Assembly: GCA_902599655.1 (NCBI GenBank)
Contig: CACKGC010000002.1
Location: 13,951 to 77,950, forward strand
DNA: 64,000 nt
Direction of reading: 5' to 3'
DNA from: an uncultured Fidelibacterota bacterium
GTDB taxonomy: Bacteria > Fidelibacterota > Marinisomatia > Marinisomatales > Marinisomataceae
The position numbers and the translations under genes were made by a program. Shown in pieces: positions 6,869 to 8,932 of this stretch (the first letter of the stretch is position 1; each line of letters starts with the position of its first letter). The notes below the pieces were generated by a model. The model saw only the letters and a list, made by a program, of their open reading frames with translations. It was not told the DNA's origin and searched no databases.

Positions 6869-8932
6869 ATGCATATTTCAAAATTAGAAATTTTTGGTTT
6901 TAAGTCTTTTGCAAAAAAAGAAACTGTTCTATTCAATTCTGGAATTACAGGAATAGTAGGCCCTAATGGTTGCGGTAAAACAAATATTGTAGATGCAATC
7001 AGATGGGTTTTAGGTGAGCAAAAGACTAAAAGGTTAAGAAGTTCAAAAATGGAAGACGTGATTTTTAATGGCGCTTCCAATGTAAAGCCTTTAGGTCTAT
7101 GTGAGGTTTATTTAACAATTGAAAATAATAAAGGATTGTTACCTGTTGAGTATTCAGAAGTTGAAATTGGAAGAAGATTATATAGATCTGGTGAAAGCGA
7201 ATATTTTATAAATAGAAACAATTGTAGATTGAAAGATATTTCCAATCTTTTTGTTGATACAGGATTAACCTCAGATGCATACTCTGTAATTGAATTAAAT
7301 ATGATAGAACAAATATTGTCTGATAAAGATGATAGTAGAAGGCAAATGTTTGAAGAAGCTGCTGGTGTAAATAAGTACAAAGCTAAAAGAAGATCTGCTA
7401 TGAAAAAGTTCGATTTAAATTCAAGAGATCTTGAGAGAATTGATGATATAATTGTTGAGATTGAAATACAAGTAAAGGCATTAGATTTACAATTAAAAAG
7501 GTTTAAAAGGCATGAGAAGCTAACAAATGAATTAAAAGAATTAGAATTAGATTTAGCTTCAGCGAGGATTAGTGATTTAAATAATATAATTAGTCCTTTA
7601 GAAGAAATGTTAAAAAAGAAGAATAATCTTTTGCAAAAAAATACTTCGAAAAAAGAGATTGAAACCGTCGAATTTGATAATGCAAGAGATAAATATTTAA
7701 ATGAGAAAGAGTTGCTTTCAAAAATGAAAGCAAAGGTTGATAAGCTCACAGAAAAGCTACTTTCAGAAATTCAAGAAAAGAACCAAGAATCATCCAAAGG
7801 TGTTGGATTACTGGAGGATGAGCTTCAAAAGAAGATTGAACAACTTAACCAGTTTGACACAGATTACATTAAGATTGTTTCTGAATGTAATGAATGCGGA
7901 AAAAACATAATTGAAACAGACAAGAAGTATGAAAAGCTTAAGGATAGTATTGAAGATTACAGAGACAAAATAGATGAATATAGAAAAGAAAAAGAATTTG
8001 ATTTTTCAAAAATGGATGCATCAATAAAAAAGATTCAAGATCAAATTAATTCAAATAATCTTGAGCTTGAAAACAAAGAAAATGAAGTGAATAAGGCTTT
8101 TATTAAGATGGAGTCAATAAGAGCAAAGCTTGATTCAGAAAAATTTAGCAAAGATGATCTTTTTTATGAAATCAAAGAAGCTGAAATGAAAATTGCAGAA
8201 TCAAAAATTAAAAAAACTCAAATTGAGCAGAATATTTCTGAAAAATTTGGAAATGATGTTGTTTTAAGTGATTTGAAAGAATACAACATTTCTGATATGG
8301 TTTTTAGAGTAGAAAAAATTAAAAGAAGTATAGATTCTATTGGTCCAATTAATTGGGCGGTCAAAGATGAGCATGAAGAAAAAACTGAAAGATTGAATAA
8401 TCTTTTGCAGCAGAGGTCTGATTTGATTGATGCAGAAAATAATTTAAAAGAAGCTATTAAAAAAATTGATATTGTAGCTGAAGAACAGTTTTTAGATACA
8501 TATAATCAGGTAAAAGAAAATTTTGAGAAAATGTTTACAGTTTTTTTCAATGGAGGTAAGGGTACAATTGAATTATCTGATCGAAATGATCCCTTAAATT
8601 CAGATATAAATATTTTTGCTCAGCCTCCTGGAAAAAGAAATAACTCACTTAAGATGTTATCTGCCGGAGAAAAGTCCTTAACTGCAATTGCATTACTGTT
8701 TTCTATTTATCAATACAAGCCAAGCCCATTTTGTATTTTGGATGAAATAGATGCACCTCTTGATGATATAAATATTAAAAAGTTTACTGATGTTATAAAA
8801 GACTACAGTAAAACTACCCAATTTATTATGGTTACTCATAATAAATTGACAATGGAATCAGCAGATTGCATTTATGGTGTAACAGCTGAAAAACAAGGAA
8901 TTTCAAAACTTATGTCCATTGATTTTTCATAA
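6869..8932 (+). CDS. smc: Smc-family ATPase, unusually short (687 aa), no hinge domain
   Basis: GFKSF, Walker A [35 protein letters not shown], GPIN, signature LSAGE, Walker B/D-loop [20 protein letters not shown]. Confidence 0.88.
   Translation: [687 protein letters not shown]

Follow-up and report, generated by a model that had tools for sequence, protein, structure and literature searches.

In bacterial Smc, represented by the Smc-ScpAB complex of Bacillus subtilis and by the protein model TIGR02168, ATPase heads with a common set of motifs sit on an antiparallel arm of ~340 residues that has a break in its proximal part and ends in a hinge; the protein is ~1170-1190 amino acids (aa) long, and its partners are ScpA, ScpB, and ParB. 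Here we describe an smc gene from a window of DNA (the whole stretch analyzed, 64,000 nucleotides of contig CACKGC010000002.1 of an uncultured Fidelibacterota bacterium) whose product has the same head motifs, antiparallel arm, proximal-arm break, and partners, but differs in having no hinge, an arm of ~162-170 residues, a turn with a CxxC motif, and a length of 687 aa. It is very probably a functional hingeless Smc, and in our best reading it corresponds, in nature, to the B. subtilis Smc that was engineered to carry a zinc hook.

The engineered Smc(Zh)/Mini-Smc proteins (Burmann et al. 2017; PMC5344682) have a CxxC hook instead of the hinge and shortened arms, features that the protein from the window appears to share; unlike Smc(Zh), its form is natural, fixed in the genus, and not derived from Rad50 sequence. 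(Statements taken from PMC5344682, PMC6969161, and PMC12153180, here and below, refer to parts of those papers.) B. subtilis Smc with the Rad50 hook of Pyrococcus furiosus in place of the hinge supported normal growth and followed the same arm-length rule (PMC5344682), and Rad50 is functional with the hinge of MukB or of B. subtilis Smc (PMC6969161). Rad50/SbcC itself resembles the window's protein in being an SMC-superfamily ATPase whose antiparallel coiled coil carries, at its apex, one CxxC in each chain (PMC6969161); unlike Rad50/SbcC, the window's protein has Smc heads, no match to Rad50_zn_hook, and a kleisin partner rather than Mre11/SbcD, and the motif has been lost in many of its close relatives. 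RecN and ASRP are also short hingeless SMC-superfamily ATPases, but they differ in ancestry, and the window's protein scores below the cut-offs of their models.

In 2025, hinge-less SMC proteins were described from ocean metagenomes; they are described as abundant, are assigned to Actinobacteria, and are stated, in the part of the paper drawn on here, to be without a CXXC motif (PMC12153180). Like the window's protein, these abundant marine proteins lack a hinge but have Smc-like heads and a coiled coil. The window's smc differs in belonging to Marinimicrobia, by names and by tree, and in having a CXXC motif; the published forms may overlap with the cysteine-free alleles of the genus described below. 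Hinge loss is thus already published for another lineage (PMC12153180), and what appears to be new is the recurrent CxxC tip, the quantized arm lengths, and the series of alleles found in the genus. Our literature searches found no natural Smc with a hook-like CxxC and no hingeless Marinimicrobia Smc, PMC12153180 being the only pertinent paper that they yielded, and a paper on Marinimicrobia streamlining (PMC6143742) contains 0 occurrences of "smc".

Head identity and the missing hinge

The smc open reading frame (ORF; 6869..8932, + strand) is a single open frame without interruption that encodes 687 aa plus a stop codon. Its product scores 718.1 bits with TIGR02168 (SMC_prok_B, NCBIfam), above the curated cut-off of 567.35, despite ~540 unmatched model positions; Pfam SMC_N matches residues 3-679 (6.7e-63), and the closest solved structure is the B. 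subtilis Smc head (5xg3, 1.6e-121). The head motifs GPNGCGKT, LSAGEK, ILDE (residues 623-626), and the H-loop residue H657 are invariant in an alignment of 28 relatives, and the head also contains GPIN from G492, FFNGG (559-563), PPGK (586-589), and VTHNK (655-659). In a head-only tree (53 rows, 435 columns; LG+C20 PMSF, quick search), the genus (support 100) is nested in a clade (support 99) with 14 full-length Smc proteins, eight of them from its own order.

On the one hand, a length of 687 aa and a hingeless architecture resemble RecN/Rad50-like proteins, and the only database (NCBI) product names for the genus proteins are "hypothetical protein" and "AAA family ATPase", as might be expected if the gene encoded a specialized paralogue or another SMC-like ATPase (RecN, SbcC/Rad50, or archaeal-type SMC-related) and not the housekeeping condensin. 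On the other hand, in contrast to TIGR02168, the other models stay far under their cut-offs: 48.5 bits with the RecN model TIGR00634 (cut-off 407.85), at most 51.5 bits with the Rad50 models (cut-offs of at least 700), and 75 bits with the archaeal ASRP model (cut-off 300). The protein is also nested inside the Smc of its own order in the head-only tree, neither the window's genome nor any of the 35 matching genomes of the genus yielded a second smc, and scpA and scpB are retained. These observations make a paralogue or another SMC-like ATPase very improbable.

The Pfam model SMC_hinge had no match in the smc protein at E<=1, and a whole-genome profile search found no hinge-coding sequence anywhere in the window's genome. 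The model works in this lineage, because a full-length Smc of the same order, used as a positive control, matches it at 1.5e-16. Only 326 aa separate the head anchors G166 and G492, and in comparison with Smc proteins of the same order (ORFs of 1167-1182 aa) about 480-495 aa are missing. When the protein was aligned with eight full-length relatives, clear counterparts were seen for residues 1 to ~293 and ~377 to 687, whereas residues 294-376 aligned only ambiguously; the ~490 extra residues of the relatives, comprising the hinge and the distal arm, have no counterpart in the window's smc.

An AlphaFold2 (AF2) model of the protein (28-row alignment; mean predicted local distance difference test score, pLDDT, 76; predicted template modeling score 0.53) has arm helices at residues 168-257 and 259-339, followed by a turn of five residues (340-344) that is the sole chain reversal, a helix at 345-374, a break at 375-382, a helix at 383-460, a loop at 461-473, and a helix at 474-491. 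The loop aligned to a comparable gap-rich stretch of the full-length relatives, and we take it to be the head-proximal arm discontinuity of B. subtilis Smc. The hinge and the distal half of both arm strands have been lost in frame.

These results bear out most of an earlier note that was made from the letters of this stretch of DNA. It had recognized both heads as those of a true Smc, had named head motifs at residues where all of them are found in the ORF translation, and had described an uninterrupted ORF 6 nt after hinT, which agrees with the single frame and with a HIT-family ORF ending 6 nt before the smc ATG. Its claim that there is no globular hinge is matched by the absence of SMC_hinge and by a model with only a five-residue turn, and its estimate that ~500 aa (hinge and distal arms) had gone in frame is close to our measurement. 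The figure of ~380 aa between the heads should be lowered to the 326 aa given above, although the short, hingeless middle that it described is there. Of the checks that the note had suggested, the Pfam scan found SMC_N and no SMC_hinge in the smc protein, and the head phylogeny, like the model scores, grouped the heads with Smc and away from SbcC and RecN. The note overlooked the CxxC motif at the tip.

Conservation of the short gene and its partners

The smc gene is real, fixed in the genus, and under purifying selection. The family consists of one genus, for which 37 other species genomes were surveyed besides that of the window (a 706-kb assembly in 22 contigs, 81.5% complete). A match to smc was found in 35 of the 37, and the two genomes without a match are 84% and 72% complete. 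Frames uncut by contig ends have 688-740 codons, except for a 640-codon variant in genome G044, and the short architecture is present also in assemblies of only 1 to 5 contigs. Matches were also obtained in 15 of 16 genomes from other families of the order, always in frames of 1171-1196 codons; these genomes measure 1.8-3.2 Mb, and those of the genus 0.4-1.1 Mb. Across 301 sampled genomes of the phylum, the genus was the only source of complete short smc frames among the matches listed; the several frames of 297-968 codons listed outside the genus were not individually checked, and at least one of them (in G207) is split over two contigs. The best 120 clusters from a large protein collection, without exception 687 or 701 aa long, come from ENA, JGI, NCBI, and Tara assemblies, with Candidatus Marinimicrobia / Neomarinimicrobiota as source names.

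The gene was also sought in sequencing runs. At least 72% of its sampled words were present in 14 DNA runs from six studies. Contigs of two DNA and two RNA-library runs (four studies) over positions 6400-9400 have no joint or indel inside smc, and contigs of both DNA runs and of one RNA-library run bridge the middle codons (7886-7897). The RNA-library contigs (two studies) cover most of the gene, but such libraries can contain DNA, and we claim no expression. The ratio of nonsynonymous to synonymous substitution rates (dN/dS) against eight orthologues is 0.04-0.10 over the full gene; the heads give 0.02-0.06 and the arms 0.04-0.14, the last range leaving out some saturated values.

Low-complexity, Lys/Glu-rich arms can collapse in assemblies, and the genome G044 has an extra 48-aa gap in one arm strand, both of which would be in line with an assembly collapse or a decaying pseudogene. 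However, the same architecture in 35 genomes, including those assembled into 1 to 5 contigs, the agreement of 120 database clusters of several sources, contigs of four runs without joints or indels in the gene, and an open frame with a low dN/dS all argue against it, and we consider such an artefact extremely improbable. The protein from G044 (L032, on contig C9 of that assembly) has 639 aa and is 98% identical to the window's; in place of residues 218-296 of the window's protein it has 31 residues, leaving an N strand of 126 residues against a C strand of 149. Either low-complexity sequence has collapsed in this assembly or the asymmetric variant is real.

Models for ScpA, ScpB, and ParB_N each matched in 35 of the 38 genomes of the genus and in all 16 high-quality ones, and scpB directly follows scpA wherever both are listed. 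In the window's genome, scpA and scpB are both present, at contig ends; ParB_N was not found in this 81.5% complete assembly, and the incompleteness is the most likely reason. Models for MukB, the SbcC-type Walker B, and the Rad50 hook had no match in the window's genome. A separate observation concerns genome G020, in whose scpA-scpB region (G020:C1:113175-114238) scpA is split into two frames of 92 and 84 codons and the scpB match contains one TGA and one TAA, while the smc protein (L008, 701 aa) is intact; either scpAB is broken there or the assembly is rich in errors.

The view of the earlier note that the gene was kept in a streamlined genome agrees with its presence in 35 of 37 genomes, its low dN/dS, and the retention of its partners. 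Its remaining checks gave concordant answers: forms of ~690 aa recur in the genus and in the 120 clusters, no form of ~1180 aa was seen in the genus or in the mapped contigs, the latter have no joint within the gene, and scpA and scpB were found without a second full-length smc.

The CxxC motif at the arm tip

The sole CxxC of the protein, C340-N-E-C343, lies at the midpoint of its 687 aa and coincides with the chain reversal in the AF2 model. A single CxxC alone cannot fill a tetrahedral zinc site. In current Smc models, a DNA-trapping ring needs a closed arm tip. In our best explanation, the window's Smc is the only Smc of a genome-reduced (~1 Mb) marine Marinimicrobia genus and very probably a functional condensin ATPase that still works with ScpA, ScpB, and ParB; ~490 residues, the hinge and the distal half of each arm strand, were removed from it in frame. 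In the window's allele, the arm is predicted to fold back at the single CxxC, and we propose that two protomers share one zinc through four cysteines, as in the zinc hook of Rad50/SbcC; this hook would take the place of the hinge as the constitutive dimerization point and would close the Smc-ScpAB ring. By analogy with the Rad50/SbcC hook, the tip of the window's allele is probably, with fair confidence, a zinc hook; zinc binding, tip dimerization, ring closure, and loop extrusion are activities that we infer for it.

The tip varies within the genus. Among the 29 of 30 genus loci in which its type could be read, nine sequences (687-689 aa) have one CxxC (type A, as in the window), six (707-709 aa) have two CxxCGK knuckles that are nine residues apart (type B), and 14 (701-703 aa) have a cysteine-free segment of 26 residues instead (type C). 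At the DNA level, type A matches the first knuckle of type B with ~20 codons deleted after it. When the tip columns were removed and the tree was rooted on full-length relatives (LG+G4, quick search), the types were interleaved, with at least five changes; the earliest branch is of type B, and the type A clade of the window lies inside type C lineages.

Since regaining CxxCGK from a cysteine-free tip is unlikely, recombination is suspected. Against its closest type C genes, the synonymous divergence of the window's gene increases three to six times, from 0.40-0.55 in the heads to 1.4-3.2 beside the tip, compared with a rise from 0.09-0.15 to only 0.15-0.26 among type A genes, and nucleotide identity to the cysteine-free relatives drops from ~93% to ~79% over residues 200-375. 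The corresponding segment (window positions 7470-7990) may have come, by recombination, from a lineage that was not sampled; no donor was identified, and none of the sampled genes is closer across the tip.

Several observations weigh against a zinc hook. The cysteine-free tip is the commonest type in the genus (14 of the 29 tips read), and the best 120 database clusters comprise 111 cysteine-free proteins of 701 aa and nine one-CxxC proteins of 687 aa; because so many close relatives are cysteine-free, dimerization may not need a zinc tip, or may not occur at the tip. The pLDDT of the AF2 model is below 50 at the tip. Pfam Rad50_zn_hook had no match in the 86-aa tip segment at E<=10, with a model that is insensitive, matching in only three of 14 control genomes, and the proline of the Rad50 hook is absent from the window's tip. 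A prediction of the tip dimer (two copies of residues 275-410 with zinc) scored 0.05 against a mark of 0.42 and is uninformative either way.

The same observations fit a functional hingeless Smc in which the tip is merely a cap: the CxxC (or the double CxxC) would stabilize the turn within one chain or be a leftover, and the chains would be joined by arm-arm zipping together with the ATP-engaged heads and a ScpA bridge, or by a tip contact that does not involve zinc. Cysteine-free tips in genes under the same constraint would then be expected, as would the interleaved types with their many changes, if the tip is a weakly constrained element. In addition, the two-knuckle form could hold zinc within one chain: it has sub-threshold zinc-ribbon matches (Zn_ribbon_6, E 0.003, 18 bits versus a cut-off of 25), so that this allele may, judging by such motifs, bind zinc without a partner. 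An AF2 model of a two-knuckle tip (L024, 110 aa; mean pLDDT 64.5, ~50 at the tip) is weak and has only short beta-bridges between its two helices. What speaks against a cap is, in the first place, the established coordination chemistry, by which a lone CxxC is insufficient for zinc, and the closed tip that a DNA-trapping ring generally requires; further evidence comes from other lineages.

Parallel hingeless lineages, arm length, and implications

A search over 1.84 billion representatives was carried out, and the best 150 matches were taken. Of these, 147 have 1148-1293 aa; the other three are a 701-aa member of the genus, P0143 (866 aa), and P0223 (754 aa). SMC_hinge had no match in P0143 or P0223. 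Both proteins belong to lineages in which, as far as their sequences tell, the CxxC recurs at the tip of an independently derived hingeless Smc.

The P0143 clade comprises three fragments and 18 full-length cluster representatives of 865-867 aa, which share 44-66% identity with P0143, and all 21 sequences have one CxxC, at residues 428-431, and no other. In the head-only tree, this clade (support 100) falls into a group (support 99) with eight full-length Smc proteins of Marinimicrobia type, different from the group (support 99) that contains the window's genus. Uniting the two hingeless clades cost 44.2 log-likelihood units and was rejected (approximately unbiased, or AU, test, p-AU 0.005). 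The nearest full-length relatives of the clade are named Marinimicrobia; none of the 301 genomes of the phylum sample contained a match to it at E<=1e-150, and a scan of genome contigs yielded only more distant Smc genes of other phyla, at no more than 60% identity.

P0223 can be compared directly with the full-length P0282 (1211 aa), to which it is 87% identical over residues 1-344 and 80% identical over residues 392-753. In place of 487 residues it has a new segment of 47 residues that contains its sole CxxC, and P0282 has no CxxC at all. This lineage has only four sequences in two clusters (P0223 and P0281). As a background, a CxxC anywhere between the heads occurs in nine of 356 full-length Smc-like proteins (3.1e-5 per residue), and the naive chance of a CxxC within 11 residues of the tip is ~3e-4 per lineage. 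Three further short Smc-type proteins, P0310 (932 aa), P0316 (1034 aa), and P0366 (1058 aa), lack both a CxxC and a precomputed hinge domain and may be fragments or further variants of the hinge-poor kind.

Also against a cap, the CxxC is kept by all 21 members of a hingeless clade of separate origin, even where identity falls to 44%; a new one is present at the junction of a third lineage, and the motif is rare in full-length Smc (nine of 356). We consider the cap rather unlikely, although less so than the other alternatives, and return to the zinc hook as the reading that we prefer.

For the arm, residues of the N strand were counted between the G of EEAAG and the first Cys, and those of the C strand between the last Cys and the G of IGP[IV]N. 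The two strands have 174 and 149 residues in the window's type (mean 161.5), 262 and 238-239 in the P0143 clade (mean about 250), and 200 and 173 in P0223 (mean 186.5). The offset between N and C strands is 23-27 residues in all three hingeless lineages, and therefore the CxxC is at an equivalent tip position in each. Between the window's type and the P0143 clade, the difference is 88-90 residues on each strand, which is close to the 91-aa period reported for engineered Smc, whose arms were functional at 253-267 and 321-344 aa (PMC5344682); the window's arm is one period shorter than the shorter of these ranges. In the same source, natural arm lengths have modes at 238, 341, and 515 aa, and 163 and 423 aa are given as possible minor modes (PMC5344682). 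Scaled from 344 aa = 47 nm (PMC5344682), the window's arm of about 162-170 residues per strand would measure ~23-25 nm.

From these comparisons we put forward a broader hypothesis: that hinge loss has repeatedly been followed by a de novo CxxC hook at the tip, at least three independent times; that only whole-period arm differences (~162, 250, and 340 residues) persist; and that in the genus the hook has been exchanged or lost, possibly through zinc scarcity in the surface ocean. It is tentative, and we would give it slightly less than an even chance; the saving of zinc by cysteine loss in the surface ocean is speculation. Some limits apply to the comparisons. The mean arm of P0223, 186.5 aa, is outside the series of ~89 aa, and this lineage, with so few sequences, may be a recent and perhaps nonfunctional deletion. 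PMC5344682 used another estimator than ours, so that a strict comparison is possible for the difference between clades but not for absolute lengths. Finally, the grouping subjected to the AU test was named after the tree had been seen.

Coordinates of the smc features and of the upstream gene are collected in Table 1. Two neighboring ORFs deserve mention. At window positions 9016-9561 (+), a gene encodes ribosomal protein S16 with 181 aa, of which the Pfam S16 domain covers only residues 9-69; the remainder is a Lys/Glu/Ala/Pro-rich tail with APAEEAPAEEVAEE repeats. At 5208-5810 (+), an ORF of 200 aa with a signal-peptide-like N-terminus is rich in Gly and aromatic residues and matches no Pfam family at E<=1e-5.

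Table 1. Positions in the window of the hingeless smc gene, its parts, and the gene upstream
Feature	Position	Strand	Evidence
smc, hingeless short form	6869..8932	+	ORF; TIGR02168; SMC_N without SMC_hinge
ATPase head, N-terminal half (residues 1-167, ends FEEAAG 161-166)	6869..7369	+	1:1 with 5xg3; AF2
Walker A GPNGCGKT (residues 31-38)	6959..6982	+	Sequence; invariant in 28 short and full-length relatives
N-terminal arm strand (residues 168-339)	7370..7885	+	AF2 helices 168-257, 259-339; alignment
Arm tip C340-N-E-C343, proposed zinc-hook motif	7886..7897	+	Sole CxxC; AF2 reversal; bridging contigs
C-terminal arm strand (residues 344-491), breaks 375-382 and 461-473	7898..8341	+	AF2; alignment
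ATPase head, C-terminal half (residues 492-687)	8342..8929	+	C-terminal part of 5xg3; invariant motifs
ABC signature LSAGEK (residues 597-602)	8657..8674	+	Invariant, including the order's full-length relatives
Walker B FCILDE (residues 621-626)	8729..8746	+	Sequence; D625 and E626 invariant
HIT-family gene (hinT-like), upstream of smc	6518..6862	+	Pfam HIT 1.4e-23; ends 6 nt before smc ATG

What the SMC hinge and the length of the arms contribute to DNA loading and loop extrusion remains a matter of debate, and the argument that the hinge is only a dimerization module has so far rested on engineered chimeras (PMC5344682, PMC6969161). A natural, abundant, and strongly conserved hingeless Smc would be independent evolutionary evidence that the fold at the tip does not matter. 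It would also support the quantization of arm length, as its arm has half the usual length and is one coiled-coil period away from that of a second hingeless clade. With 687 aa, it would be the smallest true Smc for structures of the whole Smc-ScpAB holocomplex, and the three tip types within one genus are a ready natural experiment on the need for a closed tip in a loop extruder. As for annotation, the proteins of the genus that are now called "hypothetical protein" or "AAA family ATPase" should carry the name Smc.

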